This document shows positions 4,701 through 37,784 of a stretch of DNA of 64,000 bases, piece by piece. The notes beneath the pieces were generated by a model. It did not search any database, was not told the origin of the DNA, and saw nothing but the letters and a program-made list of their open reading frames with translations. The stretch comes from a virus (taxonomy: Duplodnaviria; Caudoviricetes): positions 64,001 through 128,000 of IMG/VR virus record IMGVR_UViG_3300020112_000604. One strand, written 5' to 3'. The position numbers and the translations under genes were made by a program. Numbering within the stretch: the first letter of the stretch is position 1; each line of letters begins with the position of its first letter.

Positions 4701-4945
4701 TCAAGGAGATTAAGAATATCCATATGCCAAATCTTATTTCAGAGATTACTAAGAAGTATGGTGGATATCTTGTATACTTCGAATTCGTTGGCTTCCAGAA
4801 TGAAATCGGAAAGTACAATGCGTTGTATCAGCATATCATCACAAACAAGGATATGGAACAGCTTAAGGAAGTTCCGGAGTTCTTAAATATCAATTTCAAC
4901 ACATTGTCATCAGCCCCAGACATCAACATTGATATAATTGTATAA
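1733..4945 (+). CDS. Baseplate wedge-like structural protein (~1070 aa)
   Basis: TAATG stop/start overlap at 1731-1735; NEAIPTRAK, IYTTLGSGGNF, GATDGLD and ITTNTDL segments resemble T4 gp6/baseplate J-like wedge proteins. Confidence 0.7.
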   Translation: MLNNGNLISSDIYDLTEFVKQLKKKYIPLQDEDTLYISTFGYIGDIAANLMQNSVIAASEYSNEAIPTRAKFDRNVIIHAMTLGIDKVHATPATMPIVLCIPESCVVQNLGNNKTGERQEGVFTIDHTIPFTIEGVEFHLDYDINITRYKKEYKPTPTTGDPDNLTSVIYTARYDMSVPNPVSDIDNEILPTVGVFRYADIFQNSLAKADNVLVIYTKLSQVMYHEEEVVVSSDNDLLNKTISFQFSDQLAYFDVAVYEANADTPRVLTPIYDGLYKDGVTNYCYYSYMNSNSIRIRFDRDVYQPRMNSRVVVRIYTTLGSGGNFKYSENVRLQFPSTSKADYNSVFALIQQRGDGATDGLDRASTKQLQEIIPKEMLSRGFITTNTDLQNYFNSLSTENSIVYVFRKEDSFLKRTYYSYSLMKDNEGNIIPTNTIPIEIEGQDVNSIDVSSIGFLEAGTAVFLPVTPSTTDQPVVALPVNMKNAMFNLPEYDENARITGQILFSDANFNTFASRSMATVGNSVVLRTIINHDYELYERGEHERMPSHPIPLNGQVNKSDFTKAWNANSSFIYTVPYSIVVSQPRGTLGMVRPRCSFIVDTIDENKFTTFEWINEKSTVQFIASNVRVSRPSFMCHDRYVYYLDIDLTPNQNKANIDINKIQTTAVFKIDGEAKGYVTGYHIADLDDEESIHFRFRFETEPLATAWYENKLRVSNIYTPGYTDKSIDPVKLFPEKIDVDIFTMYHYAAERPCKSIGESFGGGDLEAGEIAMYQPVTFAYPFQLRDTDRVGPEGKEYMKYFAKENDTDPFTNPHPIYTEYATYKKYADFIEDNPRCVYAMGNMVLTNKYSITSGINLYYNYSDYMDSHVSVSEAPALGHSYDFTLNRIPVIRMEYLESEERVQFTMNELRKAMIYVSNSVGKLETLFGIDFKLFNTYGPSKTYSIEDSNGSLYPLNQVNLTLNFRAQLYTDADKNIIAQIKSDIKSYIEDIKEIKNIHMPNLISEITKKYGGYLVYFEFVGFQNEIGKYNALYQHIITNKDMEQLKEVPEFLNINFNTLSSAPDINIDIIV

Positions 4946-24446: not shown

Positions 24447-24468
24447 ATACGTACCCCTCCTTTGCTGT

Positions 24469-24480
24469 TATACTAATGTT
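24469..24480 (-). promoter_or_regulatory. Late promoter AACA-N6-TA
   Basis: AACATTAGTATA upstream of the tape-measure gene. Confidence 0.65.
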
Positions 24481-24513
24481 TTGCTTATAGTAAATGCTAA
24501 ATATGAAAAAAAA

Positions 24514-24548: not shown

Positions 24549-25607
24549 TTAATTTGAATACGTTACTTTCTGACGAAGTGCTGCTAAGTCTGATGCGTCA
24601 CATACGCCATTGTTGTCCATGTCGCAAATCTTTGCACGACTTGCTGGTACTCTCTTGTCCACGAGAGCAGCTGCTAATTCTGAAAGATCTGTGATATCAA
24701 CTACACCGTTGCAGTTGTAGTCACCTTTCTTAAGTCCGAAGTTCCAGCGTGTTGAATTATCGTATATTGTGGATGTAGCCTGAATATTTTTAGCACTCAG
24801 AAGTCTCCATGTGTCATGTGTAGTAGCACCAGTCTTATACTTCGAATCAGACTTTAAAAATTGTATGAAATAATTACCTGCTGTACCATATGTATTATAG
24901 TCAGTTCCATCCCATGTCGGATCACAATTATACCATTCTCCATCAATTTTTACTTTAACCCACATGTGAGCTGAATTAACGACCAGTTCACATTCGAGAC
25001 CAGCATAATTACATATCTTGTCAAATGCTCTTCCGAATCCTTCACATACACATTTTTTATCTACTAAAGCACCGATTGCGCAACGGGCATTAGGCGCATC
25101 TGATACGTATTTAACGTTTGTAACAAGCCACTTGTTAATAGCTATAGCCTTTTCAAGATCACTCATGTTTGTTGTAGCTATAGAATTCCAAACAGCTTTC
25201 GCAGCATTGTTTTCTGCATTGTTTTTAGCAGTCCAATCACTCTTGGTGTTTTTGTATGTTATGCCGATCCGACCAATTATTATCTGTTTATTGGCATTAT
25301 ACACTGGTGAAATTGACATCGCGTCAGCGATTTCAATGTTGTTACAATCTTCAGTTATTCTCGCATCGCCCACGAGTCGGTTTATACGCTGTATTGTTGG
25401 ATCGTTTGCATCCGAAAGATTCTGGATAACCATATCACATGATGATAAATCGATCACGGTCTGACCGTTTAAGAGACCATTTCTTATAATCGACATAATG
25501 GCTTCATCCGATGCCGCTGCGGATACCGGGATTGCTGAGCAAAGTATCACTAAGCTCATGATTGCTGACAGGAATCCTGCCAGAAGTTTACTAAATCGTT
25601 TTTTCAT
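24549..25607 (-). CDS. Secreted transglutaminase-like (Cys-His-Asp) protein with C-terminal dockerin
   Basis: Signal peptide ending VSA; CVCEGF / HMWVKV / CDPTWD triad; duplicated Ca-loops GDYNCNGVVDITD and DMDNNGVCDASD. Confidence 0.88.
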   Translation of the reverse strand: MKKRFSKLLAGFLSAIMSLVILCSAIPVSAAASDEAIMSIIRNGLLNGQTVIDLSSCDMVIQNLSDANDPTIQRINRLVGDARITEDCNNIEIADAMSISPVYNANKQIIIGRIGITYKNTKSDWTAKNNAENNAAKAVWNSIATTNMSDLEKAIAINKWLVTNVKYVSDAPNARCAIGALVDKKCVCEGFGRAFDKICNYAGLECELVVNSAHMWVKVKIDGEWYNCDPTWDGTDYNTYGTAGNYFIQFLKSDSKYKTGATTHDTWRLLSAKNIQATSTIYDNSTRWNFGLKKGDYNCNGVVDITDLSELAAALVDKRVPASRAKICDMDNNGVCDASDLAALRQKVTYSN

Positions 25608-25719
25608 AGGTATAAACCATCCTTATAATATTGCGGTATGATTACCATACCAAATTCCCTAAAATACCATTTTTTGGTATCATTAGAATGTTCACAATTT
25701 GTTCACAATAAAAAAATAA

Positions 25720-25745
25720 ACGAGCAGGAAGTTATCCTGCTCGTC
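25720..25745 (-). terminator. Intrinsic terminator
   Basis: ACGAGCAGGA/TCCTGCTCGT stem with adjacent A-run. Confidence 0.75.
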
Positions 25746-25750
25746 AGCAA

Positions 25751-26176
25751 TTAGTTTGTGAGTCTGTCAAATACCGCGTCAATAACTTCGTTAGGCTTGT
25801 TCCACCACTGGTGTTCTCGTATAGCGATAGCACTCCGTACAAGTTTTCTACCGAAGTTCGGATAATAATAATCATTTACCATATACTTGACGTATGATTT
25901 CTGTGATGGTGCATCAGTTTTAATCTCATCACGCACAATCTTTATCATACCCGCATAGAGACGTGCCGCAAATTCAATCTCAGTTCTATCCTGCTGGTAT
26001 CCATACAGAATAATGTTTTCGTTATTGTTATACAGGAATTCATATATCCTATTCATTATAACTGTATTCTGAGATGGTCCGGTTGGTCTGAATGGCTTGT
26101 TATACACAGGGACATCACGATCTGGTCCCTGAGCTGTCATAAACATTAATGGACGGTTTTTATAATTACATTTCAT
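25751..26176 (-). CDS. Hypothetical protein
   Basis: 141 aa, AAGGAG RBS. Confidence 0.75.
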   Translation of the reverse strand: MKCNYKNRPLMFMTAQGPDRDVPVYNKPFRPTGPSQNTVIMNRIYEFLYNNNENIILYGYQQDRTEIEFAARLYAGMIKIVRDEIKTDAPSQKSYVKYMVNDYYYPNFGRKLVRSAIAIREHQWWNKPNEVIDAVFDRLTN

Positions 26177-26187
26177 ATTATGTCTCC

Positions 26188-26544
26188 TTAAATATCACAG
26201 TGTTCTTTTCCTTCAAAAATGATAAGCTTTATAGATTTCTTGCTTTTCCTCCAGACTGCCAGAAGAGCGTATTCCGGAAGTGCTGTGTCGTCAAATGCTA
26301 AAATCTTAACAGCGTCAACACATTCGATTCGATTTTCCCAATAGGAATGGTAGAATACGAATGGGTCCGGATTGTGTTTATCACGCATTTTGTTTTCGAT
26401 ATGCTGATAAACATCCTTGACGGTAACTACATACCTGGAATCCGTTGCAGCCTCGAAGTCGTGTAATATCGTTGCTGTGGAATCCACTGGTTCAGTTATC
26501 ATTAATGCGGTTCTCCCTAATCTGGTTGTACTTATATGGCTCAT
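26188..26544 (-). CDS. Hypothetical protein
   Basis: 118 aa, AAAGGAG RBS, ATGA overlap with upstream frame. Confidence 0.7.
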   Translation of the reverse strand: MSHISTTRLGRTALMITEPVDSTATILHDFEAATDSRYVVTVKDVYQHIENKMRDKHNPDPFVFYHSYWENRIECVDAVKILAFDDTALPEYALLAVWRKSKKSIKLIIFEGKEHCDI

Positions 26545-27357
26545 TTCATTTCTCCTTTATTATTCACGGTCTTGAAATACGATAATAAATTTTCTGAAGC
26601 GCTAACGATAGAATTAATGCATGTTCGGCAATAGTTCATTTCGGCATATGTATATGATTCATCGTCTGAGACCGAAAAATTCGTCATCACACATTTTACA
26701 TTTGCGTGTATTGTCTTCATCATCGGAAGATGTATCTGTGCTGCGAGTTATGGTATCAATGCCGTTGATCATTTCTTCAATGAAGTTCATACCGTATAGG
26801 GCATTTAATTCTTTCTTGGTGTCTCTGTCGATTCTTTTCTTAGGTTTGTCTTTGTCGAATACATCAACGTATAGCTGTTTCTGGTCGTAACGATGTCCGT
26901 CAGCTAACGCGAATATTTTCTGTAAGCATGTCGTTGCCGGAGCAGATAATTCCGGTGATGATATGCTTAATGCGAATAGCTTTATAAACTCAACGTCATA
27001 CAGTTTCGAGTCGCGATGAAAAGTTCGATTCAAATTGATTTCTACAAGAAATCTTCTGAAATCAATTTTTGTTATCATATTCATGACGATAAAGTCTTCA
27101 ATTGATTCGACATCTGTCGTAATTGTTCGATATGGAATATCGATTGCAAATGTCAGTTCAGTTCTCCCGAATGCTATAGCCACATCTATTGAATACGATT
27201 TGATATTATTTTTAGGGTTTTTTATAGCATAGATTAATTGAACAAGCTTTTCAGCAATTTCTTTTGTTGTTTTAGCTGTGCATACAGGTTCGGTGTTCAG
27301 TTCAACTGATGTATACACATTGTAACGTATTGGTTCATCGTCAATTTTAATTGGCAT
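26541..27357 (-). CDS. Hypothetical protein with C-terminal Zn ribbon, split by a frameshift at an A5 run
   Basis: ORF 26659..27357 ends CKMCDDEF; removing one base at 26675-26679 continues SVSDDESYTYAEMNYCRTC to the stop at 26541, completing CxxC...CxxC. Confidence 0.65.
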
Positions 27358-27376
27358 AGTGGTTTCCTTTCTACAA

Positions 27377-27577
27377 TCAATTGTTGTTAAGCATATTGGT
27401 TATTGATTCTGGCGTACCTTCAACCACATATGCTTTACCCGAAGTCATAATGATTCTAGTGTCTGTTGGTGTTGTTGCCTTAGCGACTGATTCGATAAGG
27501 TCTTTGTTGATTGTAACAGTTTTCTGTAACTCAGCCTTTCCTGAGATATTAGGTTCATTAAATGTAACGAATTTCAT
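27377..27577 (-). CDS. FlbD/SwrD-like small protein
   Basis: INKDLIESV...TPTDTRIIMTSGKAYVVEGTPESI follows the FlbD-family pattern; AGGAG RBS. Confidence 0.65.
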   Translation of the reverse strand: MKFVTFNEPNISGKAELQKTVTINKDLIESVAKATTPTDTRIIMTSGKAYVVEGTPESITNMLNNN

Positions 27578-27604
27578 ATTCTACATCTCCTTCATAAAAA
27601 TAAT

Positions 27605-27629
27605 CCGGGAAGTCAAAGAGACTTCCCGG
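27605..27629 (-). terminator. Intrinsic terminator
   Basis: CCGGGAAGTC/GACTTCCCGG stem. Confidence 0.75.
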
Positions 27630-27638
27630 TATAACGTA

Positions 27639-28724
27639 TTACTTGTGTGATATATAATTCTGAAGTTCGATAACGTCCATTACGTCGATGCTGCCATCGC
27701 CGTTGAAATCGGCCTCACGTTTAACAGAATTTGGAGTGTTTTTGTTTGTGGTAAAATTACGAAGATAAGATAAATCTGTAATATCTACTGTGCCGCTATG
27801 ATTAACATCTCCGCGTCTGTAGCTGCTTAAATTCCAGTTAGCGTAATCGTAGAATGTGGAATTTGTTGCTGGTAGTACTTCGTATGTAAGAGTAGCAGCG
27901 CCGTAATTTCTGTAGTATGAACACATTGTTGCGTATTTTGAACCGCTAACGAGGAAAGGTTTATATGCGTTAGCTTTATTGAACTGCTGATAGTTCTGAG
28001 CACCCTGGAGTATGTCTAACATATACCATGTGCCGTCAATCTTAACAGCGTTCCATTCGTGGTTTGAATAAGTATCGCATACCATTTTACAATCAATGCC
28101 TATCTTTTCGCAAACGAGATTTAATGCTGTTGACATTCCGCTACAAACTGCAGACTTGTTTACTAATGCGCCATATGCAAAATACATTTCATCCCAACCG
28201 TCGCTTGCTTCCGTCGTCGGAACGTTTACATTGGTGATGAACCACTTATAAACCGCCTTGATCTTTTCGAGGTCGGTGCCGTTTTTAGGAGCAACTGAAG
28301 CCACATTGTTTATTGCATTCTTGAGAGCGGTTTCACGTGTTTTATAACCTGAACTTCCTATTGGGTATCGACATTCAATGTGAACTGATTCAGACTTATT
28401 GTTATTATCGCCGCAAACACCACAACTTGTCATGCAACATGCATTCAAGGTTATGTCCATCGTTGCTGCTTCGTACAGCATAGTTGAAATCTGAAGATCA
28501 TGAATAACGTCTCCTGTAGTTCCGGCTAAGTCAGAAATAGGGATGTAGATATCTGATTTTCCTGTCATACGATTTTTAGCCGTTTCTAGGTTTTTAGTGA
28601 AGTTTGCGTTGTTTCGTGTGCTGGTTATTTCCCTGCGAGCTGCTGAAGTTGTGATTGGTGTGCACATAACCGTCACGCCAATGATTGCTGAGATAATTCC
28701 TGACAATATTTTTGTGAATTTCAT
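27639..28724 (-). CDS. Secreted transglutaminase-like protein with C-terminal dockerin
   Basis: Signal peptide; AVCSGM / HEWNAV / MLD triad; GDVNHSGTVDITD and ADFNGDGSIDVMD; paralog of 24549; ATG 28724 after AGGAGG. Confidence 0.88.
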   Translation of the reverse strand: MKFTKILSGIISAIIGVTVMCTPITTSAARREITSTRNNANFTKNLETAKNRMTGKSDIYIPISDLAGTTGDVIHDLQISTMLYEAATMDITLNACCMTSCGVCGDNNNKSESVHIECRYPIGSSGYKTRETALKNAINNVASVAPKNGTDLEKIKAVYKWFITNVNVPTTEASDGWDEMYFAYGALVNKSAVCSGMSTALNLVCEKIGIDCKMVCDTYSNHEWNAVKIDGTWYMLDILQGAQNYQQFNKANAYKPFLVSGSKYATMCSYYRNYGAATLTYEVLPATNSTFYDYANWNLSSYRRGDVNHSGTVDITDLSYLRNFTTNKNTPNSVKREADFNGDGSIDVMDVIELQNYISHK

Positions 28725-28794
28725 TTGGAACCTCCTAATAAAAATGTACATTAATAGTCGGGAGACACCGAAGTGTCTCACGAACTTTTATTTA

Positions 28795-29634
28795 TTACTT
28801 GATTGATGAATTGATGCCGGCGAACAGTGTTCTTGTATCGATTACTTCATCTAATAATGATGATGAAGTAGCACTTCTGCCATATACGAAACACCAGTTC
28901 TTTGATGAGTTTGCCGCGTAAGCTACATATGTACAAACGTACTTGTAAGTTGAATCAAATACAGAAACCTGTCTTTCATATGAACCGTCTCTGAACTTGA
29001 GTTCTGTAACAGCGATGTATACAGATTTGTTGAGTACAGTTCCATTGTAATATGTTGTAGAACCAGATGTAGATGCTGATGGTCCTATTTTGAAATACGG
29101 TACATAATCATCAAGATATCCGTATCTGTCGCTCATGCCCATGACGCGGAGGTTTGTGCTTCTGCCAAGGAACAGAGCATTGCCTGAACGTACTGAACCT
29201 GAGTATGTTGTGAATGTGTTGTCATTTGTGAAACCTGATACGATGAGGTTGCCATTTGTATCGATAGCCTGATAAATATATCCGGGTTCAGTTTCTGACG
29301 GTGTATAGACGTCAGTTCCGATTGTTGTCTTAGAACCGAGTGCATACTGAGTATCGATCTTAGAAACGATTCTTCTAAGACCTACGAGATCTGCTGTGGT
29401 GATAACACCGTTTGAATCGATATCGGCTACGCTGATATCTGCTGTTGCTCTGCCTGAGAAAACATCATTGAATTTTGAAATATCTGTGACGTCAATGACG
29501 CCATTCTTATTGATATCTCCTGTCTGCCATGTCTTTGTGAATGGAATATTAACAGCCGCTGAAGCTGCAGCAGATACTGTCATTACTGTTCCGAGCACGA
29601 GTGCTATAAATCCCGAAATAATTCTCTTTTTCAT
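28795..29634 (-). CDS. Secreted protein with N-terminal dockerin and unknown beta-rich domain
   Basis: Signal peptide; GDINKNGVIDVTD and ADIDSNGVITTAD. Confidence 0.85.
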   Translation of the reverse strand: MKKRIISGFIALVLGTVMTVSAAASAAVNIPFTKTWQTGDINKNGVIDVTDISKFNDVFSGRATADISVADIDSNGVITTADLVGLRRIVSKIDTQYALGSKTTIGTDVYTPSETEPGYIYQAIDTNGNLIVSGFTNDNTFTTYSGSVRSGNALFLGRSTNLRVMGMSDRYGYLDDYVPYFKIGPSASTSGSTTYYNGTVLNKSVYIAVTELKFRDGSYERQVSVFDSTYKYVCTYVAYAANSSKNWCFVYGRSATSSSLLDEVIDTRTLFAGINSSIK

Positions 29635-29649
29635 AGTATTGTCCTCCAA

Positions 29650-29955
29650 TTATCTTTTTGTGCAGTTTGTATATACTCGAAGTAAGTTTCCCGATGTGCT
29701 GTAAATTTCGAGCCTTCCTCCGTAGTATGTGTACATGATGTCATAGTATCTTCCCTCGACGGAGCCGTTGGAATAATACACCGTAACATTTCTTCCCTTA
29801 CGTCCCCATCCATCATTTGTAAATGATGTCTGTGAACTGATTGTTGTAGCCGCTGAAACGGTTACAGAGCTGTTAATTGATGTGTCTGGTAATACTGATG
29901 GTGCAACGCCCATCATCATTACTGCTGCAAGTAGTGAAATTAATTTCTTCTTCAT
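29650..29955 (-). CDS. Small secreted protein (paralog of 30792)
   Basis: Signal peptide ending VTVSA; shared V-Y...YT..G..LEIY pattern. Confidence 0.8.
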   Translation of the reverse strand: MKKKLISLLAAVMMMGVAPSVLPDTSINSSVTVSAATTISSQTSFTNDGWGRKGRNVTVYYSNGSVEGRYYDIMYTYYGGRLEIYSTSGNLLRVYTNCTKR

Positions 29956-30004
29956 TATGAAATCCTCCTTATAATTTATATACTAAACTGTTACTATCAG
30001 TGTA

Positions 30005-30274
30005 TTACTTTACATTATTGATGCCCCAATCAGTCTGCAGTTCAATTTTAAGTTGAACCACATCTCTGGCATCGATGACGCCGTCATTGTTGACGTCAGC
30101 TGATTCCCAGTACTCGCCGTCGAGTATGAGATTGCATAATGTATCAAAATCAGCCCAGTCGGTATAACCGTCTGTGTTGATATCTCTGTCCGCAATTCTT
30201 GTAGGTGCAGCGCCATTGAGCGTTACGGTTGAGCTAAATATTGTTGCAGATAAACAAAGTGCTACAAAATTCAT
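30005..30274 (-). CDS. Stand-alone dockerin with hydrophobic N-terminus
   Basis: RDINTDGYTDWAD and ADVNNDGVIDARD make up nearly the whole protein; ATG 30274 after GGAGG. Confidence 0.8.
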   Translation of the reverse strand: MNFVALCLSATIFSSTVTLNGAAPTRIADRDINTDGYTDWADFDTLCNLILDGEYWESADVNNDGVIDARDVVQLKIELQTDWGINNVK

Positions 30275-30278
30275 ATGT

Positions 30279-30722
30279 TTATTCCTCCATAAGATTGACT
30301 GCAAATGATTCCGGCCATGCCATCATGACATATTCGGACTGACCTAATGATGAATTGTTCACGTCAACGAATCCATTCTTTATATAGAATGACACCTTCG
30401 TATCATAGAGATATTCCTTTACAGAACCCTCTATTGAGTTATATTCTTCTTCAGATGTACATCCGACCTTTACAATTACTGGTAACTGATTTGCTGCCAT
30501 AATGCCCTGAAGCACTTTGGAACCAATTCCCACATGACGATATGCTTTATTAACTTCGATTAAATCGACATATATAAATGAACACGGTGCGTTCTTCATT
30601 GTGTCAAGATCATCCAAAAATAATTCCCGGTTCTGGCGTACGATTATGCTTTTATTAAACACGATGTACTTATAATGTACAACACCAGTGTTTCTTTCTA
30701 TTATGTCATACATTGAATACAT
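30279..30722 (-). CDS. GNAT-family acetyltransferase
   Basis: YRHVGIGSK acetyl-CoA motif A, FYIKNGF motif B. Confidence 0.82.
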   Translation of the reverse strand: MYSMYDIIERNTGVVHYKYIVFNKSIIVRQNRELFLDDLDTMKNAPCSFIYVDLIEVNKAYRHVGIGSKVLQGIMAANQLPVIVKVGCTSEEEYNSIEGSVKEYLYDTKVSFYIKNGFVDVNNSSLGQSEYVMMAWPESFAVNLMEE

Positions 30723-30791
30723 AAAGTTTTCCTCCCATAAAATAAATAGACCACAGGTTAATAACCTGTGGTCTGGTTTGTGATTAACCGA

Positions 30792-31100
30792 TTAGCATTT
30801 ACGTACGCCGTGCCAACGTGCTATCAGTCTAGCTGAATCCCAGTCGTAGATCTCTAAGCAGTCGCCGTCAAATGTGTAAAATACCTTGTTATACACGATC
30901 CAAGGTTCATTGATATGATGGAAGTAAACGGTTCTGCGGACATTTGAGTCGCTCACCATAAACTCATAATATTTAGTTGCCGCAGAAACTGAAACTGCGG
31001 TTTCGGATGATGTGTCGTTGTTTGAGAATGATGCCGCTGGAGCTGCAATCATAGTTAATGCCATCATGCCTGCTAAAAGTGTTTTGAAAACGTTCTTCAT
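30792..31100 (-). CDS. Small secreted protein (paralog of 29650)
   Basis: Signal peptide ending VSVSA; ATG 31100 after AAGGAGG. Confidence 0.8.
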   Translation of the reverse strand: MKNVFKTLLAGMMALTMIAAPAASFSNNDTSSETAVSVSAATKYYEFMVSDSNVRRTVYFHHINEPWIVYNKVFYTFDGDCLEIYDWDSARLIARWHGVRKC

Positions 31101-31123
31101 TGTGGTTTCCTCCTTATGTATAA

Positions 31124-31597
31124 TCAACGTACTTTGTCAGCTTTACAGATGTAGTCTACCGCAAATGGAAGTGGCAGCTTCATCATGACAACGTACTCTG
31201 ACTGACCGAGTGGTGTGTCACTTAAATCAACAAAACCATTGCGTTCATAGAACGGAACCTTGGTTTTTATGATATAACCTTTGACATCGTCAATATTGGC
31301 GTCGTATTCTTCTTTAGACACGCAACCAACCTTAGCAAATATCGGATACTGTCCGAGAGATGCTGCTCTGAATATTGCTTTAGTGCCGAGACCTTTACGT
31401 CTATATTCCGGTTCAATGTTTATCAGATCCAAATATACGAATCTTTCCGGGCGGTTAGTTAAACCTTCGATATCGTCGAATAGTGTTTCCTTATTTCCCA
31501 TTCCGTCTACATGGTCATAAAGATGAAACTTTAAGATTCCAGCTTCATGTCCTTTATAAAATAAGGTTGTTTCGTATGATTCTGATTTAATGTACAT
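31124..31597 (-). CDS. GNAT-family acetyltransferase (paralog of 30279)
   Basis: YRRKGLGTK, FYERNGF; shares KVGCxSxEEY and LGQSEYV with 30279. Confidence 0.85.
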   Translation of the reverse strand: MYIKSESYETTLFYKGHEAGILKFHLYDHVDGMGNKETLFDDIEGLTNRPERFVYLDLINIEPEYRRKGLGTKAIFRAASLGQYPIFAKVGCVSKEEYDANIDDVKGYIIKTKVPFYERNGFVDLSDTPLGQSEYVVMMKLPLPFAVDYICKADKVR

Positions 31598-31665
31598 AGT
31601 AACCCCTTTCTGGTTTAAAACGAATAAAGGACTGCAGTATCGAACTGCAGTCCTGAATTAGCGAA

Positions 31666-32166
31666 TTACTTCTTAAGCCATGAAGGGCAGCTTGATGAAG
31701 CTTTGATCTTGTCGAATGCAGGAATCTGCTTTTCTTCACCTGTTGATGGAACCTTTGTTGTTGATGCTTCTTTGTGTTCCATCTTAAGTGTGCACTTGCT
31801 TGTTTCTGTGTTCCAGAGAGCAACCTTTGTTCCGCTCTGAAGAGTTGTTCCAAGCCAAGCCTTTGAGATGTCTACCATATTTGCTGCTACTGATGGTGAA
31901 GGTGTGTATCCTTCAGCAAGTCCTGCAGCTTCTGTCTTTGATACTCCGCCTGCCTGTGAAAGAACCTCTGAACAAATTGATGTGAACTTTTCGTGTGGAT
32001 TTACTATATCCTTAGCATTGCCTTTTCCGTCAAATACTGTGATATTGAAATCCTTGTCTGTGATCATAGCACGCATGATTGCTGCGTTTGTCTTGTCTGA
32101 AGCCTTGTTTGAGTTTGCTTCAGCGATTTCCTTAAGTACTTCATTCATCGATTTTACTTCTGCCAT
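31666..32166 (-). CDS. HU/IHF-like DNA-binding protein with N-terminal extension
   Basis: LQSGTKVAL...KVPSTGEEKQIPAFDKIKAS resembles the HU beta-arm (xNPxTGExIxIPA). Confidence 0.6.
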   Translation of the reverse strand: MAEVKSMNEVLKEIAEANSNKASDKTNAAIMRAMITDKDFNITVFDGKGNAKDIVNPHEKFTSICSEVLSQAGGVSKTEAAGLAEGYTPSPSVAANMVDISKAWLGTTLQSGTKVALWNTETSKCTLKMEHKEASTTKVPSTGEEKQIPAFDKIKASSSCPSWLKK

Positions 32167-32323
32167 TGTCATTTACCTCCTGAATTGTTTGTGATTGTTT
32201 ACTTCTATCGAAAAGCTTTTTGACTTTTGATTTGCCATTAGCCTCGATAATCTTATTGAGTTCTTCGGCTGACATTGATGTCAGTTCTTTTAGAAAGGTT
32301 TCCTGATTATACAATTCATTCAC
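32141..32323 (-). CDS. Small hypothetical protein
   Basis: 60-aa ORF behind an AACT-N6-TA motif (32335-32346) and GGTAGG RBS. Confidence 0.55.
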   Translation of the reverse strand: MNELYNQETFLKELTSMSAEELNKIIEANGKSKVKKLFDRSKQSQTIQEVNDNGRSKIDE

Positions 32324-32359
32324 CTACCTTCTATTATTCAGTAGTTGAATGTACTGTAA

Positions 32360-33322
32360 TTATTTAAATCCCCATTCCTCACATATACGGGTAGTAGAGG
32401 AAGGGTCGACTTCTTTATTTGACGTTGTATTGCTTGGGAGTTCCCAAGTATACTGGATAACGTCAGTTTTAACCTGGTCGATTATTGATTTTGGAATGTC
32501 CGATACATCGCATATGTAACCGGCATCAATAAATGGATTCCATATTACAATACGTTTGACATTCTTATAGTGTTCAATACCTGACTGAAGACCCATTACA
32601 TACTCTGTAAGAATATGAAGTGTGTCTTTAGAATTAGGCTTTGATTTGGATAAAGAGACTCTGACTAATGCATCATCGCATAATAAGTCAGGACGTCCGC
32701 TTGTAATTGTTTCTGAATAAGCAAAGTCATTCAGATACGTTGGATAATTGATAACGTTTAAACGTTCTTTCTCGAAAAAGCCGATTGAACGCATAAGCAT
32801 TACCTCTAGGTTTCCTATGTCTTTTAAATCAGCGTTATTATATCTTGATACAACATTCGCTGGTGATTGGTCTAACATCATCTCATATGCCGTGAATGAT
32901 GCTAATAAACATATCTGGTCGTGAAAAGATGGTACAGGTGAAATTACTGATTCACATGTATTGTTTATAATCTTTGCGATACCAGATTTACGATTGTTGA
33001 AATACTTTATAGCACCATCCAGGCTCGGTGATGCATCCGGATGACGTTCTGTAATCTTAGTAAGTGTTTTAAGATCTTTGTCAATGCATTTAATGTATTT
33101 GTTTGCCCCGTCAATAGCTGGTGCTAAAACACCATATCGGTCAACAGGTTCTTTTGAACAAAAACAACGTAAGCAATAAACCATAAGCAGCCTCGAAAAC
33201 TGAGGCTGCTTGATAGCTGGTAAATTGCTCGAACAATTGGACACGGTTCTGAATAACGTGAGCGGAATAACCGCTTTCTTATTTGGTGACTTGTATTTGG
33301 CTACTCTCTGTGAAATTGTCAT
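32360..33322 (-). CDS. PD-(D/E)xK nuclease-like protein, possibly inactive
   Basis: GRPDLL motif and downstream H-I-L-x-E-Y helix and IVIWNP strand; the expected (D/E)xK reads RVS. Confidence 0.5.
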   Translation of the reverse strand: MTISQRVAKYKSPNKKAVIPLTLFRTVSNCSSNLPAIKQPQFSRLLMVYCLRCFCSKEPVDRYGVLAPAIDGANKYIKCIDKDLKTLTKITERHPDASPSLDGAIKYFNNRKSGIAKIINNTCESVISPVPSFHDQICLLASFTAYEMMLDQSPANVVSRYNNADLKDIGNLEVMLMRSIGFFEKERLNVINYPTYLNDFAYSETITSGRPDLLCDDALVRVSLSKSKPNSKDTLHILTEYVMGLQSGIEHYKNVKRIVIWNPFIDAGYICDVSDIPKSIIDQVKTDVIQYTWELPSNTTSNKEVDPSSTTRICEEWGFK

Positions 33323-33335
33323 AAGCTTATCTCCT

Positions 33336-33707
33336 TTATAATTTCGCTACATATGCAACGAATTTTTCAGGTTTGACTTCTACACAGTATTCGTCAACAC
33401 CTTTACATGAGCCTCTTAAATTAAGCTGAGCCGTTGATAGATCAAGTGCGCATTTCCACGCATACTTGGTTTTTGTTTCTTCTGACACAAGCATGTCTCC
33501 GTATCCTAAGAATCTAACCGCTTTAAACGATTTTCCGTTCTCGAGGACAACGTTGTACTTAATAGCATCATCATCTTCGTCATAATATGCTTCAATCGAA
33601 TGAAGCTTTAATAACGATGATACGCGGTTTGACTTTGGTGCATGCTTATCGACGTTATGTCTGTCGATTGTGTGGTAATGTGCAGCACCTGTTACAAATC
33701 GTTCCAT
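33336..33707 (-). CDS. Hypothetical protein (paralog of 33725)
   Basis: YHTIDRHNVD and FLGYG shared with neighbour. Confidence 0.75.
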   Translation of the reverse strand: MERFVTGAAHYHTIDRHNVDKHAPKSNRVSSLLKLHSIEAYYDEDDDAIKYNVVLENGKSFKAVRFLGYGDMLVSEETKTKYAWKCALDLSTAQLNLRGSCKGVDEYCVEVKPEKFVAYVAKL

Positions 33708-33724
33708 ACATAATTACTCCTTTC

Positions 33725-34099
33725 TCATAAGAATGTAATATGAACAGTTTTGGTTTTAGGGTATATCTCAATGATACGTTCGTCACCATCGTTCGATAAT
33801 GCCGAAATGTTATCACGACGAACATTTAAAACTCTCAACAGTTCTTTAAATGTTCCAGTATGGGTTGTAGTCAATACACCTCCATATCCTAAAAACTTCT
33901 GACAATTTAGCACAACTCCTGTATCCAGTCGTACTAAAATTACTCGGTCTCTATTACAACGGTATTCGTTGATGGAGACCACTTTACATACAGGTCTTCC
34001 TTTTTCTCTTTTAAAGGAATTCCTATCGACATTGTGTTGATTGATCTCGTGATATTGACCTGGATCAATATTATATTTACTTCCTTTACGTCTTCCCAT
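33725..34099 (-). CDS. Hypothetical early protein (paralog of 33336)
   Basis: YHEINQHNVD and FLGYG; AGAAAGGA RBS. Confidence 0.75.
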   Translation of the reverse strand: MGRRKGSKYNIDPGQYHEINQHNVDRNSFKREKGRPVCKVVSINEYRCNRDRVILVRLDTGVVLNCQKFLGYGGVLTTTHTGTFKELLRVLNVRRDNISALSNDGDERIIEIYPKTKTVHITFL

Positions 34100-34146
34100 T
34101 GGTTTTCATCCTTTCTATAGATATGAATTGGATTGCTTTCTACATA

Positions 34147-34165
34147 TATAATATATAAGTCAAAA
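34147..34165 (-). promoter_or_regulatory. Early promoter TTTTGACTTATATATTATA
   Basis: 19-nt sequence identical to 50141-50159. Confidence 0.7.
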
Positions 34166-34238
34166 TTCGACAAAAAAAAATAATGGAGAGGTATGTAACC
34201 TCTCCATTATATCCGTGTTAGCGTTTTAGTTTGCGCGA

Positions 34239-35066
34239 TTAAAGACTCATTAAATCAAGAGCTTTCCAGTATGCAGCTGCATCCGGAACTCTGCCGTATG
34301 ATTCGGTCTTATCGTATGATAACTGCGCACCGATTAAGAGATAGTCGTTTCTCAGTGTAGGCTGATATACAGAGGCTGTTACAAGAATCTGTTTTCCATC
34401 CTTGTAAATATTCTGGACTTTGTAATCGAAGCCGACACCGAAGTTTTCGGCGCCACCGTCATAATGAACTACTGTGGAGAGTATGGATACTTCACCATAG
34501 TCATCAGACGTTGCTGTAGCATACTTGTAATCGATGTCTGTGATTGAACATGACGTTGTCATAGGGATATACGCAATGTCACGTTCATCGTAGTTATCCT
34601 CGGTCATTTCATCATGAAATGCCGAGTCGCCATTGAGGTATAAGTAGTTGCCTTTTCTTATACCTTCGAATCTCCAGAATTCACCGGAGCCTTCCTGATA
34701 GATGTATCCGTCTTTTTCGACTATATCTGTATGACTTACTAAGGCTGTGAATTTGTCACACTCCTTTATGTCATAAATCGGGTACTGTGAACGTACCTTG
34801 CTTATAACCTGTCTGAGTGTTGCGAGGTCTGCAAGATTGACTTCGTCATCTCCGTCCATATCGGCTGTGGCTGCATCGATTTTGCTGAAATTGCTATCAA
34901 CGAGTGCGACAGATAATGTGGAAAGATCCGTGATGTCTACCTTACCGTCGCAGTTGACGTCGCCGGTCGAATAATATACGGCGTCCGTCTGTGCTGCTGA
35001 AACGGATGGAATTGCCATTGATACCCCCATTACGATTGCCATTGCTACTGTGATGATTCTTTTCAT
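34239..35066 (-). CDS. Secreted protein with N-terminal dockerin
   Basis: Signal peptide; GDVNCDGKVDITDLSTL and ADMDGDDEVNLADLATLRQ; ATG 35066 after AGGAGG. Confidence 0.88.
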   Translation of the reverse strand: MKRIITVAMAIVMGVSMAIPSVSAAQTDAVYYSTGDVNCDGKVDITDLSTLSVALVDSNFSKIDAATADMDGDDEVNLADLATLRQVISKVRSQYPIYDIKECDKFTALVSHTDIVEKDGYIYQEGSGEFWRFEGIRKGNYLYLNGDSAFHDEMTEDNYDERDIAYIPMTTSCSITDIDYKYATATSDDYGEVSILSTVVHYDGGAENFGVGFDYKVQNIYKDGKQILVTASVYQPTLRNDYLLIGAQLSYDKTESYGRVPDAAAYWKALDLMSL

Positions 35067-35137
35067 TTTTGATTTCCTCCTGAAAAATAATATACGGGTA
35101 GACATAGTCTACCCGTGTTTGACGTATTGAAGAGTGT

Positions 35138-35200
35138 TCATCTTCTTGGTCCTGTTGATGTGTCAGCGATAACGCCGATTACCCATAAGATAAAATCCAT
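35138..35200 (-). CDS. 20-aa hydrophobic micropeptide MDFILWVIGVIADTSTGPRR
   Basis: Strong AAAGGAGGT RBS at normal spacing; lies between two terminator hairpins. Confidence 0.5.
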   Translation of the reverse strand: MDFILWVIGVIADTSTGPRR

Positions 35201-35314
35201 GGTGTAATACCTCCTTTTGAATTACACTTACGTGATTACTATCTTTGTTCCAAGAAGACTAAATAATAACAAGTAGGGAGGAGACATTATAGCCTCCTCC
35301 CTTCGATTGTTATC

Positions 35315-36526
35315 TTATCTTACGAACATTGTGTCATCGAACCATGCATCAGATTCAATAATTAAATCAAATACTTCAGCATCTTCGACCTGTAAAATCT
35401 CAGAGTTAAATGAGAACCATCTGTTCTGAGAAGTTACAGTAATTACTTCTTCACCGGTGCAGATTACTGTTGCTGCTCTAACACCGATGAGTTCGAATTC
35501 TTTGCCGTTAAACATGTAGAGTCTTACGGACTTCATACCTGTCTTACCGGCTGTTGACGGGTTGTCAGACGCTCTTGTATCAGCAACCCACATACCTACG
35601 ATATTTCTTTCGGCATCATAGATATATTCAGCGGACTGTTTCCATGTAAGCTTTGTTGTGCCAGGAATGAATGCGATGTTACCAGCATAGTTTGTTGAAA
35701 GCTGGTCCCATGAGAATACAACGGTCTTAGCATCCTGAATTCTTGATGTATTCTTGATGCTATTGACAAAGTCGTTATGCATAATATCCATGTTCTGGAT
35801 ATTATCCGTCAGGTTTCTGTTACCCTCTGTATTCATTGCTGGAGTAACAGTGAATGATTCAGCTGAGCCAGAAGCTGCGATAGCTTTGATTGTTGTATCC
35901 ATATCGTTTCTGAAATCTTTAGATGCAGCTTTCTGTCCGAATGATACGCCCGTAACTTCAGGTTCTGTTGTTGTGACTGCAGTTGTTGTTACAGGTACTA
36001 CTTCTGTTGTAGTAACAGCTGTAGTTGTTGTAGATTCTGTTGTTGTTACAGCTGTAGTTGTTGTAGCTTCTGTTGTAGTTGTAACTGTTGTTGTTATAGC
36101 CGGTGTTGTTACTGCAGGTGTTGTAACGGCTGCTGGATTACCATAGCTATCCTTGATATCCTGAGCAGTTATCTGATGGCAGATAAACTGTCTCAGTATA
36201 GCCAGGTCAACTAATGATATAACACCATCGGAATTCAGATTTCCTACACCGTCTCTTGTGTAGATTTTGAATTCATTAATTGTCGTTTCTTCACCTATAA
36301 GATAGAGTGAGAGATAAGACAGGTCTGTTATGTCAACCACATTGTTTCGGTCGATGTCACCGATAAGCGTCATGAACGTATCGTCAGGCAAATCTGTCAT
36401 GCCTTTCGACATGTTCCACCGACATGTTGCATAATTGAATTCTGCTGCCGCTGGTCTGATGCCTGTTGTTGTTAATGCAGCTATTGCTGCTAATGTAACG
36501 ATTGCTGATGTAAATATTTTTTTCAT
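35315..36526 (-). CDS. Secreted protein: dockerin, Thr-rich linker, unknown C-terminal domain
   Basis: Signal peptide; GDIDRNNVVDITDLSYL and NLNSDGVISLVDLAILRQ; VTTT repeats as in cellulosomal linkers. Confidence 0.88.
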   Translation of the reverse strand: MKKIFTSAIVTLAAIAALTTTGIRPAAAEFNYATCRWNMSKGMTDLPDDTFMTLIGDIDRNNVVDITDLSYLSLYLIGEETTINEFKIYTRDGVGNLNSDGVISLVDLAILRQFICHQITAQDIKDSYGNPAAVTTPAVTTPAITTTVTTTTEATTTTAVTTTESTTTTAVTTTEVVPVTTTAVTTTEPEVTGVSFGQKAASKDFRNDMDTTIKAIAASGSAESFTVTPAMNTEGNRNLTDNIQNMDIMHNDFVNSIKNTSRIQDAKTVVFSWDQLSTNYAGNIAFIPGTTKLTWKQSAEYIYDAERNIVGMWVADTRASDNPSTAGKTGMKSVRLYMFNGKEFELIGVRAATVICTGEEVITVTSQNRWFSFNSEILQVEDAEVFDLIIESDAWFDDTMFVR

Positions 36527-36773: not shown

Positions 36774-36799
36774 GGTTAAGTTCCTCCTTTGAACTATAA

Positions 36800-36879
36800 A
36801 TGCCCTGCATCATAGGCGTTTTTGTATTAGATAAGGTGATGCATATTGTTCCTTATCACTATAATAATATACAATTGAA
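36800..36879 (-). repeat. Early promoter plus structured leader, copy 1 (~80 bp)
   Basis: Near-identical to 56415-56495 on the plus strand. Confidence 0.85.
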
Positions 36880-36905
36880 TATGGTGAGTTTCTCGGGTAT
36901 AGCTG

Positions 36906-36917
36906 AACATCATTATA
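36906..36917 (+). promoter_or_regulatory. Late promoter AACA-N6-TA
   Basis: AACATCATTATA upstream of the prohead protease. Confidence 0.65.
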
Positions 36918-36947: not shown

Positions 36948-37784
36948 ATGAATCCAAAATCGGTCGGTTATATTCTCACTGAGAATACCGTTAATTCTGA
37001 AACGCAGATTATTGGAGATGATAAAAATGGCCGTTTATTTGCTGAAGGCATTATGCAGGATCTCGATGTTGTAAATCGTAACCAGCGTATATATGCTCCA
37101 GAAGATATGGACCCGGATCTTAACTCTCCAAGAATTCAGCAGGAACTTATTCCTACTGGCAATATGAAAGGTGAAGCAAACCATCCTCTTGATAAATCCT
37201 TAGCACGTCAGCAGGTTGTAGATCTCGAGAGATCAGCAGTAGTATATCACAAGTTATGGCGTGAAGGAAATCTTATCAAGGGTCAGTTCTGCGGAACCAA
37301 TAACAACTTTGGTGATTATTTCAACAAAGATCTTGCTTCCGGATATAAGCCATCATTCTCACTTAGAGCACTTGGTTCTATCGAGAATATCGGCGGTAAG
37401 GCTTATGTAAAGAATATCCGTATCATTACCTATGACTGGGTTATTCTTCCATCACATAAGGTTGCTTACACACAGAAGCTTATTGATAAGCCGGATACTA
37501 TGGTCGGAAACATTGTGTCAACAATGCCTGATTCAATGCGTGAAGGTGCATCTCTTCTTACTGAATCAACTATTCCGATTCTTACATCACAGATTCTTGA
37601 CTTCGTTAAGACTGAATCTGCGGATATCAAATCCGTACTCGAAAACTTTGATCTTTCATATGCTTCAGCACAGCTCATCAATGAGGGTGCTTCGGTAGCT
37701 ATGACAGACTCACTTGGTACTACATTCGTAGTAAACATCGAAGACCACATTAAGCGTCAGTTCATGGACTCATTCGTAGACTAA
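36948..37784 (+). CDS. Prohead core protease (T4 gp21-like)
   Basis: NRNQRIY, GEANHP (His), FSLRALG (Ser), YDWVILPS (Asp). Confidence 0.9.
   Translation: MNPKSVGYILTENTVNSETQIIGDDKNGRLFAEGIMQDLDVVNRNQRIYAPEDMDPDLNSPRIQQELIPTGNMKGEANHPLDKSLARQQVVDLERSAVVYHKLWREGNLIKGQFCGTNNNFGDYFNKDLASGYKPSFSLRALGSIENIGGKAYVKNIRIITYDWVILPSHKVAYTQKLIDKPDTMVGNIVSTMPDSMREGASLLTESTIPILTSQILDFVKTESADIKSVLENFDLSYASAQLINEGASVAMTDSLGTTFVVNIEDHIKRQFMDSFVD

Follow-up and report, generated by a model that had tools for sequence, protein, structure and literature searches.

Results

Gene content of the island

Six genes encoding dockerin proteins lie at positions 24549–36526 of the window, the 64,000-nt stretch analysed here, which is part of a 183.7-kb virus record (~75% complete) of an AR9/PBS1-like jumbo phage. 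All six ORFs listed in the initial annotation were present, on the minus strand. P1 (24549–25607, 352 aa) comprises a predicted signal peptide, an N-terminal domain with a transglutaminase-like Cys-His-Asp core, and a C-terminal dockerin. Its paralogue P2 (27639–28724, 361 aa from an internal Met, 31% identity) likewise combines a predicted signal peptide, a transglutaminase-like core and a dockerin. P3 (28795–29634, 279 aa) carries a predicted signal peptide, an N-terminal dockerin and a β-rich X domain of ~180 aa, an arrangement repeated in its paralogue P5 (34239–35066, 275 aa). The predicted signal peptide and N-terminal dockerin of P6 (35315–36526, 403 aa) are followed by a Thr-rich linker of ~70 aa and a Y domain of ~210 aa, and P4 (30005–30274, 89 aa) consists of a hydrophobic N-terminus and a dockerin only. 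For four genes the true start was assigned to an internal Met with a good RBS: P2 at 28724, P3 at 29634, P4 at 30274 (GGAGG 8 nt 5′ of the ATG) and P5 at 35066. The ORF spans before this correction were 27639–28781, 28795–29649, 30005–30304 and 34239–35105, respectively.

The same strand of the island also encodes SP101 (29650–29955) and SP111 (30792–31100), small proteins with a predicted signal peptide but no dockerin. SP101 is a weak paralogue of SP111 and is 43–44% identical to its orthologues in related phages. Two acetyltransferase-like paralogues, GNAT1 (30279–30722) and GNAT2 (31124–31597), share 46% identity; GNAT2 is 88–98% identical in relatives. The left border is formed by the gene for a giant protein of 4170 aa that contains a Peptidase_M23 domain, a putative virion-associated lysin (11934–24446, minus strand), preceded by a strong late promoter at 24463–24486. 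At the right border lies the prohead protease gene (Peptidase_S77; 36948–37784, plus strand), with a late motif at 36906–36917.

Phage identity and transcription signals

Split genes for the β and β′ subunits of a multisubunit RNA polymerase were found in the record (PHROG 2962 and 2987, E = 1e-63 to 1e-65). The best tblastn matches of these subunits were phiR1-37, Goe21 and AR9, with PBS1 also among them, and identity to AR9, PBS1 and phiR1-37 was 28–33%. A family of 19 early-promoter sites with a common, extended, AT-rich consensus was identified in the record by PWM, and its motif fits the AR9 early consensus (PMC5312081). The record thus shares with these phages both the TATATTAT-type early promoter and the AACA-N6-T[A/G] late motif. 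The record is that of a phage, and its sequence features, the split polymerase and the early promoters, place it with the AR9/PBS1/phiR1-37-like jumbo phages, which have two multisubunit RNA polymerases. AR9 and PBS1 (Bacillus) and phiR1-37 (Yersinia) belong to another host group than the dockerin phage.

All dockerin genes had been described as lying downstream of early promoters. Both of the promoters cited do belong to the 19-site family, but only P6 is directly behind one. The virion-RNAP-type early promoter at 36856–36891 (minus strand, PWM 31.4 bits) is predicted to drive g62 and P6. The second (34140–34175, minus strand, 30.6 bits) is predicted to serve four non-dockerin genes (33725–34099, 33336–33707, 32360–33322 and 31666–32172), which end at a terminator at 31654–31628. 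The dockerin genes are bracketed by strong hairpin terminators: one lies 3′ of P1 (24514–24544, minus strand), and similar hairpins occur at 25719–25745, 27605–27629, 30748–30774, 31628–31654, 34180–34210 and 35275–35302. Terminator-like sites numbered 25, against 7.6 expected. Late motifs of AR9 type precede P1 (AACA-N6-TG, 25681–25692, minus strand, 74 nt upstream; of low information content, with a weak PWM score of 9.1) and the block SP101, P3 and P2 (AACA-N6-TA, 29981–29992, minus strand, 26 nt before SP101). Uniform early expression of the dockerin set is not supported, and the term 'early' stands for P6 alone.

Dockerin modules

The Pfam profile Dockerin_1 (PF00404; gathering score 22.9 bits) matched four of the six proteins above the cut-off: P1 (28.8 bits), P2 (43.2), P4 (33.8) and P5 (36.2). 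P6 was borderline, just below the cut-off at 22.4 bits, and P3 scored below it in a six-frame search (19.4 bits). Two tandem 12-residue Ca loops (D/N at positions 1, 3, 5, 9 and 12), each followed by a helix, were nevertheless seen in all six by alignment and in the translations (12 of 12 loops). P6 has a degenerate second loop (N-L-N-S-D-G-V-I-S-L-V-D), and in the second loop of P3 position 9 is Thr. Across the 183.7-kb record, a dockerin-loop regular expression found these six genes and one single stray loop. The shared VDITDLS...ADLAxLRQ signature attributed to several members was confirmed, with VDITDLS in four of the six and DLAxLRQ in three.

The dockerin fold was examined on P3, using an AlphaFold (AF2) model with a pLDDT of 75.5. 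Residues 36–95 of the model matched solved dockerins with Z 8.6–9.3, among them 2ccl_B (Z 9.3), 3ul4_B (8.9) and 5nrk_B (8.9), and matched R. flavefaciens 5m2o_B with Z 7.0. Foldseek gave a probability of 1.00 and TM scores of 0.80–0.84 to 6kgf_B/6kgd_B, with an rmsd of 1.1 Å over 55 residues to 6kgf_B. Identification of the six duplicated-loop proteins as dockerins therefore stands, on Pfam for four, with P6 borderline and P3 assigned by predicted fold. A reading of the loops as generic EF-hands is contradicted by the dockerin fold and the Pfam matches. The initial annotation had recognised no cohesin in the window; none was detected in the whole 183.7-kb record either (PF00963, E ≤ 1), although the record is ~75% complete and the missing part could hold one.

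Cargo domains and export signals

P1 and P2 matched Transglut_core (PF01841) with 37.9 and 42.2 bits, respectively (cut-off 23), and the transglutaminase-core profile matched PDB entries 9crn_A (E = 1.6e-17) and 3isr_A. The columns of P1 Cys188, His214 and Asp229 were invariant in a nine-sequence alignment. Judged from these data, P1 and P2 carry a transglutaminase-like/papain-like core with an intact Cys-His-Asp triad and predicted catalytic activity. Homologues of this module (P0009) bear cell-wall-binding repeats in place of dockerins. Structure comparison of the P3 model revealed no clear known fold for the X domain, and among the best 150 matches of an exhaustive search of 1.84 billion proteins the domain did not occur outside these phages. 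The Y domain of P6 was modelled poorly (pLDDT 39); a protein-language search gave weak CBM-like leads (CBM65, CBM27 and CBM11), with scores of 0.75–0.82 that are in the range for shuffled proteins. No glycoside hydrolase, esterase or CBM was significant in Pfam, in keeping with the earlier remark that no glycoside hydrolase was recognisable.

A simple home-made sequence heuristic served to recognise signal peptides; by it, P1, P2, P3, P5, P6, SP101 and SP111 each have a K/R-rich n-region, a hydrophobic core and an AxA site. The N-terminal signal or hydrophobic segment reported for all six dockerin proteins is accordingly canonical in five by this heuristic; the N-terminus of P4 is hydrophobic and has no charged n-region (no K/R). 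The 12-kb island holds seven of the 13 signal-peptide-like N-termini of the record.

Conservation and turnover among related phages

Two to five dockerin genes occupy the same position in at least five related lineages of phage (L034, L037/L038, L039, L040 and L041–43), assembled independently from different samples, and the giant M23 gene borders the island in every relative. This conserved synteny contradicts the reading of the island as a chimeric host insert. Each lineage has at least one gene that combines a transglutaminase-like core with a dockerin (TGase-Doc) and at least one that combines a dockerin with the X domain (Doc-X). The P1 orthologue is 78% identical in L037 (dN/dS 0.21) and frameshifted in L034. 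P2 and P4 are absent from both of these lineages; together with GNAT1 they were present only here among the relatives compared.

The measurable dockerin genes gave dN/dS values of 0.1–0.35, indicating purifying selection, and the dockerin part of P6 gave 0.06–0.15. Their dS was ~1.2–1.9 or saturated, compared with 0.1–0.5 for the flanking genes. High dS combined with gene gain and loss fits turnover by cassette exchange. The dockerin part of P2 had no match among 50,697 GenBank phage records.

Candidate host

Among 401 sampled Ruminococcus-family genomes, one, G132, stood out by having dockerins 53–65% identical to P5; dockerins of the other genomes were much less similar to those of the phage. 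The P5 dockerin is 62–66% identical to GH9-borne dockerins of G132. At least 104 dockerins of this genome fit the phage dockerin profile, and it has 22 cohesin modules. It also encodes a GH9-Doc protein and a 769-aa TGase-Doc protein, the latter 34% identical to the N-terminal part of P1. The phage dockerin class occurs in 10 of 17 species of the genus, and no other phage dockerin comes as close to those of P1, P3, P5 and P6 as the dockerins of G132 do. Among the best 150 matches to P5 in 1.84 billion proteins, only phage orthologues (65–94% identity) equalled or exceeded the best bacterial dockerins (≤64%). Nucleotide similarity between phage and host dockerins is low (68–80% over 55–160 nt), and none of 91 CRISPR spacers from the G132 and G345 arrays matches the phage.

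By sequence comparison, the phage dockerins belong to the main dockerin class of the cohesin-bearing G132. The link to Ruminococcus-type cellulosome bacteria proposed in the initial annotation was borne out, the best dockerin matches being to cellulosome-bearing genomes of the Ruminococcus family. Dockerin similarity points to the genus of G132 as the probable host.

Discussion

The island resembles genes of Ruminococcus flavefaciens FD-1, which has a SIGN-transglutaminase-like-Doc operon (ORF01263-01266, group 4b) and a SIGN-Doc-serpin (Rincon et al. 2010, PMC2930009). A signal peptide, a transglutaminase-like core and a C-terminal dockerin in head-to-tail genes are common to both, and N-terminal dockerin architectures occur there as well. 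In R. flavefaciens, dockerin groups decide whether cohesins of ScaA/B, ScaC or ScaE are bound (PMC2930009; Israeli-Ruimy et al. 2017, PMC5301203). The genes described here differ in being carried by a lytic-type jumbo phage. P1 and P2 are shorter (352–361 aa) than their homologues in G132 (769–807 aa), and the phage dockerins have a short type-I-like linker, unlike the long-linker group 1 form of R. flavefaciens.

Phage morons and the surface proteins of lysogenic conversion or superinfection exclusion modify the surface of the host and are encoded by units complete with their own promoter and terminator. Like them, the island lies between conserved modules, with terminators around its small accessory genes, varies among close relatives, and has products predicted to be exported. 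It differs in its carrier, a non-temperate AR9-like jumbo phage, and in its presumed target, an extracellular multi-enzyme scaffold that would be reached by a borrowed assembly module. That no phage dockerin arsenal had been described was nearly right: in the open literature searched, viral dockerins appear in passing mentions only, one for a jumbo phage from a brine pool that has a dockerin gene (bioRxiv 10.1101/2024.01.25.577265) and one for dockerin domains beside a NosD-like protein on a putative ANME-2 virus contig (PMC13452462). Those viruses too encode cellulosome-type modules on exported proteins. In contrast to these single mentions, the present set is dockerin-only (two to six genes, with no viral cohesin found), fits the principal dockerin class of a genus that makes cellulosomes, and recurs throughout a clade of phages.

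The proteins' domains and export signals, their place in a phage genome, an island conserved despite turnover, purifying selection and the dockerin similarity together make it fairly likely, in our view, that the island serves as an accessory module in a clade of AR9/PBS1-like jumbo phages, with exported proteins that dock on scaffoldins of cellulosome-producing Ruminococcus-family hosts. The infected cell would export the island proteins via Sec. Unoccupied cohesins on the scaffoldins of that cell, and possibly of cells nearby, would then take up the type-I dockerins of these proteins, which are of host type. The cellulosome would thereby receive cargo chosen by the phage: a papain/transglutaminase-like Cys-His-Asp enzyme from P1 and P2, the phage-specific β-rich X domain from P3 and P5, and the Thr-rich linker with the Y domain from P6. 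P4 would act as a plug alone, with no cargo. The most likely outcome, in our view, would be a remodelled or blocked cell-surface cellulosome. A scaffoldin that was occupied or cut might, for example, no longer adsorb superinfecting or progeny phages; alternatively, the cell might be loosened from the fibre.

Several other explanations were weighed. The dockerins could act without host cohesins, giving exported phage proteins (lysis or egress helpers, for example) a generic module for Ca binding, stabilisation or wall binding. Organisms without a cellulosome have many dockerin proteins too, control genomes of this kind also scored for Dockerin_1 in Pfam, the P0009 homologues use cell-wall-binding repeats, and the neighbours of the island include genes of lysin type (M23 and CHAP domains). 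We nevertheless regard this as unlikely, given that the phage dockerins track the dominant class of one cohesin-rich genus, with identities up to 66% and helix motifs in common, and show far lower similarity to dockerins from the other genomes of this family. Virion-associated proteins, serving as particle decoration or as receptor-binding adaptors to host-surface cohesins, would suit the position of the island between structural genes (giant M23 protein and prohead protease) and the late-type motifs before P1 and the SP101-P3-P2 block. This is improbable: the predicted cleavable Sec signal peptides would remove the proteins from the cytoplasm, where capsids and tails are assembled, PHROG and Pfam gave no structural signature, no cohesin was found in the 183.7 kb to hold them on the virion, and the genes are small, moron-like and terminator-bracketed.

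It is also quite doubtful that these are auxiliary metabolic genes, whose products would help the cellulosome to bind or degrade fibre and so supply more host carbon during a long infection cycle. The CBM-like leads of the P6 Y domain and a Thr-rich linker of the type seen in extracellular fibrolytic proteins would agree with such a role, but those leads score no better than shuffled proteins, no fibre-active domain was significant in Pfam, and one member is a bare dockerin. Neutral passengers, host genes that a hot spot prone to recombination has captured and that do nothing for the phage, would account for gain and loss between relatives, for P2, P4 and GNAT1 occurring only here, and for the frameshifted P1 orthologue of L034. 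Such an origin is very improbable when every measurable gene is under purifying selection, no lineage has lost the TGase-Doc and Doc-X pair even where dS is saturated, and the X domain is confined to these phages among the best 150 matches.

Docking on host scaffoldins thus remains our preferred reading, and a stronger version of it may be put forward tentatively. The island proteins might be viral effectors directed against an extracellular machine, with host-mimicking dockerins (the bare plug P4 and the dockerin-guided Cys enzymes P1 and P2) occupying or cutting scaffoldin cohesins. The cellulosome would then be switched off or rebuilt, so that superinfection by cellulosome-adsorbing phages would be blocked, or the cell and the progeny phages freed from the fibre; cassette exchange would track cohesin diversity.

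Fibre breakdown in the rumen and hindgut is driven by cellulosomes, and a phage that placed proteins of its own in this machinery could change fibre adhesion and degradation directly, beyond the killing of cells. The island is a tractable example of a virus that borrows a host code for protein assembly, that of cohesin and dockerin, and supplies a natural, diversified dockerin set with X and Y cargo domains available for testing. For an uncultured jumbo phage clade, the dockerin match also provides a specific prediction of the host genus.

Dockerin modules and predicted export signals of the island proteins

All six dockerin genes of the island (24549-36526), placed on one strand by the initial annotation, are minus-strand ORFs: P1 (24549-25607), P2 (27639-28724), P3 (28795-29634), P4 (30005-30274, a dockerin alone), P5 (34239-35066) and P6 (35315-36526). 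In a search with Pfam Dockerin_1, P1, P2, P4 and P5 scored above the cut-off, P6 fell 0.5 bit short of it, and P3 remained below at 19.4 bits. Each of the six modules contained two 12-residue calcium loops, both followed by a helix, and the positions that ligand the ion are occupied by acidic or amide residues. In an AlphaFold model of P3, built from a 12-sequence alignment (pLDDT 75.5), residues 36-95 superposed on solved dockerins complexed with cohesin (2ccl_B, Z 9.3; 3ul4_B, Z 8.9), on the R. flavefaciens dockerin 5m2o_B (Z 7.0) and on dockerin 6kgf_B (rmsd 1.1 Å). A dockerin-loop pattern run over the 183.7 kb of the record returned, besides the six genes, a single isolated stray loop. The initial report of no cohesin held for the phage record, in which none was found. 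The linker of the phage dockerins is short, which argues against assignment to the long-linker group 1 of R. flavefaciens (PMC2930009).

Reading of the upstream DNA placed the starts of four genes at internal Met codons preceded by GGAGG. A classical signal peptide was predicted at the N-terminus of five of the six dockerin proteins (e.g. MKKRFSK, a hydrophobic core and VSA↓A), while P4 begins with a hydrophobic core devoid of a basic residue. Two further small proteins with a predicted signal peptide and no dockerin, SP101 (29650-29955) and SP111 (30792-31100), are encoded in the island, each after one of two paralogous GNAT-like genes. Of the genome's 13 signal-like N-termini, as scored with a simple heuristic, 7 fall within these 12 kb. 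A tandem-duplicated two-gene unit occupies 30279-31597, consisting of a GNAT-like acetyltransferase gene (copies 46% identical) and then a small predicted secreted protein; a bidirectional hairpin (30747-30775) parts the two copies, and relatives have one copy.

Cargo domains

The paralogues P1 and P2 share 31% identity, and a transglutaminase-like core was identified in both using Pfam. Phage and bacterial homologues all retain the Cys-His-Asp triad of this core. A family profile matched PDB entries 9crn_A and 3isr_A ('transglutaminase-like, putative cysteine protease'); P1 as a single sequence had no PDB match. For P2, a word-based homologue search gave weak matches to the transglutaminase core alone, and tblastn against GenBank phages aligned the core with gut phage contigs lacking annotation but left the dockerin unmatched throughout.

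P3 and P5 form a second paralogous pair (28% identity), with an N-terminal dockerin followed by a beta-rich domain of ~180 aa, termed X. No fold was given to X, since the rows for a LolA/LppX-like fold were weak (Z ≤ 5.4) and Atlas TM was below 0.35; this candidate was dropped. In P6 the dockerin is N-terminal and is followed by a Thr-rich linker of ~70 residues and a domain, Y, for which the AF2 model was unusable (pLDDT 39). Atlas feature leads from Y to carbohydrate-binding modules (CBMs) lay below the noise line and were rejected.

Phage identity and conservation of the island

The window covers bases 64001-128000 of an IMG/VR virus record that is linear, 183,720 bp long and ~75% complete according to CheckV. 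It encodes split RNA-polymerase beta/beta' subunits (PHROG 2962 and 2987, E 1e-63 to 1e-65). With tblastn, these subunits were 28-33% identical to their top matches, in Yersinia phage phiR1-37 and the Bacillus phages Goe21, AR9 and PBS1. Other window genes specify a B-family DNA polymerase, a CHAP-plus-virion protein and a prohead protease (Peptidase_S77). At the left border of the island lies a 4170-aa ORF (11934-24446) with a single recognisable domain, Peptidase_M23 (residues 3811-3900); it has the strongest late-type promoter of the region upstream and measures 4138-4174 aa in all related phages. Judged by these polymerase matches and this gene set, the source of the window is an AR9/PBS1-like jumbo phage. 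Ten large ORFs of the window (267-1167 aa, including 1652-4945, 44767-47115 and 59406-62909) had no Pfam match at E ≤ 0.001; seven were scanned against PHROGs and two matched, ORF 1652-4945 as phrog_18960, a family without assigned function, and ORF 44767-47115 as phrog_20751, a virion structural protein.

An exhaustive phmmer search with P5 against 1.84 billion proteins produced 570 matches. Among the best 150 of these, all that reached into the X domain (P0012, P0013, P0051, P0097 and P0110) were encoded by related jumbo phages of other samples, within the same island. The island was present in contigs L034 (188.7 kb), L037 (268,021 bp), L038, L039, L040 and L041-43, and in each it was placed between the giant M23 gene and the DNA polymerase and prohead protease genes. 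A pattern scan of viral contigs with P5 gave no match, and one with the DNA polymerase gave a single near-identical contig that ended before the island; the aligned dockerins varied too much to yield a pattern. The possibility, raised initially, of a chimeric host insert is contradicted by the recurrence of the same island between the same flanks in other samples; from these comparisons, the island is neither an insert nor unique to the window. GC content is even across it (0.37-0.41).

Using an HMM made from the six window dockerins, three intact dockerin genes and one frameshifted gene were counted in L034, five in L037, at least four in L039, and two each in L040 and L041. Every lineage kept at least one gene for a transglutaminase-like protein with dockerin (TGase-Doc) and at least one for a dockerin with X domain. 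Non-dockerin island genes shared 76-100% identity with their L034 and L037 counterparts, whereas the predicted exported proteins diverged far more: identities to L034 and L037, respectively, were 83% and 59% for P6, 93% and 56% for P5, 41% and 40% for P3, and 44% and 43% for SP101. P2, P4 and the acetyltransferase-like gene GNAT1 were absent from both. By the Nei-Gojobori method, dN/dS of the dockerin genes was 0.1-0.35 wherever dS was measurable, and dS of P3, P5, P6 and SP101 was ~1.2-1.9 or saturated, against 0.1-0.5 in neighbouring genes. On these substitution patterns, the dockerin genes appear to be old, selected alleles exchanged through recombination, and neither decaying passengers nor merely fast-evolving copies.

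Several smaller features were also observed. A 66-aa protein (27377-27577) that matched Pfam FlbD, a flagellar/swarming motility protein, above the cut-off (30.7 bits) was 97-98% identical in related phages, among the most conserved island genes. Two neighbouring early genes at 33336-34099 encode distant paralogues of 123 and 124 aa (27-29% identity). The P1 orthologue of L034 (17512-18571) shares 99.3% DNA identity with window 24549-25607 and has one additional A in an A6 tract directly preceding the catalytic Cys codon, splitting the gene into ORFs of 188 and 138 aa. The frameshift may reflect a sequencing error, mark a pseudogene or act as a slippage switch.

Bacterial counterparts of the phage dockerins

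When GTDB species genomes were scanned with a pattern, matches of ~40% identity came from Ruminococcus MAGs, Ca. R. primaciens and R. albus. In a set of 401 genomes sampled from the Ruminococcus family, G132 (3.8 Mb) was exceptional in having numerous dockerins with 53-65% identity to P5; G254 and G345 came next at ~50%. At E ≤ 1e-8, at least 104 G132 dockerins matched the profile of the phage dockerins, and the best-matching one is carried by a GH9 cellulase. G132 also has 22 cohesin modules, with cohesins on contigs C13, C14, C15 and C66. This dockerin class occurred in 10 of 17 species of the genus, at 55-66% identity. P1, P3, P5 and P6 were each nearer to G132 dockerins than to any other phage dockerin, and a 15-residue helix stretch was identical between P6 and one of them. 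At G132:C13:65545-70620, on a contig with several cohesin genes, two tandem TGase-Doc proteins (769-807 aa) aligned with the entire N-part of P1 at 32-34% identity; they form a bacterial counterpart of P1 and P2.

Recent capture from G132 was not borne out, because phage and G132 dockerin DNA were just 68-80% identical. Four CRISPR arrays in G132 and G345 supplied 91 spacers, and against the phage these gave chance matches of ≤17 nt alone. The genus of G132 is thus a lead to the host, not proof.

Promoter motifs and expression timing

The genome contains 19 sites of an extended early-promoter consensus, ~GTC-N5-TTTCA-N-TT[AG]TATATTAT[AT]A-N-[AG]GTG, which resembles the AR9 early motif, AAATATATATTAT-6N-G (PMC5312081). 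Both early promoters initially placed in the island were found exactly there, on the minus strand, but their proposed control of all the dockerin genes was not sustained. The site at 36856-36891 precedes g62 and P6; that at 34140-34175 precedes four non-dockerin genes and then strong terminators. P5 has a bare TATATTAT-6N-G upstream, lacking the upstream consensus, and short AR9-type late motifs (AACA-6N-T[A/G]) occur before P1 and before SP101-P3-P2. With a late-promoter PWM, the giant M23 gene alone had a strong site, those of P1 and SP101 being weak. These motifs do not support uniform early expression of the dockerin genes, whose timing may be mixed.

Terminator-like hairpins, at three times expectation, flank P1, P5, P6 and the GNAT1-P4-SP101-P3-P2 block. 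The g62/P6 early promoter is followed by a structured leader (36780-36856, minus strand), with an ATAAGG/CCTTAT stem and GCATC loop, then a GCCT/GGGC stem and ATGATGCA loop.

Possible role of the phage dockerins

In full-text searches, no account of a phage dockerin set came up; the only viral dockerins met there were one listed for a brine-pool jumbo phage (bioRxiv 10.1101/2024.01.25.577265) and dockerin domains of a putative ANME virus contig (PMC13452462). R. flavefaciens itself has SIGN-transglutaminase-like-Doc and SIGN-Doc-serpin proteins, and its dockerin groups set the destination, either ScaA/B, ScaC or wall-anchored ScaE (PMC2930009, PMC5301203).

The simplest reading is that infected cells would export P1-P6, that their dockerins would engage cohesins of host scaffoldins, and that phage cargo would end up in or on the cellulosome. 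The proteins might instead have cohesin-independent roles, associate with the virion or act as auxiliary metabolic genes (AMGs). They might also be neutral passengers, against which the low dN/dS of the dockerin genes speaks, as these are not decaying. Under export and docking, the phage may gain receptor masking or scaffoldin cleavage, fibre detachment, or metabolic help. Since P4 is a dockerin alone and the putative Cys enzymes are conserved, we find blocking or remodelling of the cellulosome the most attractive option.
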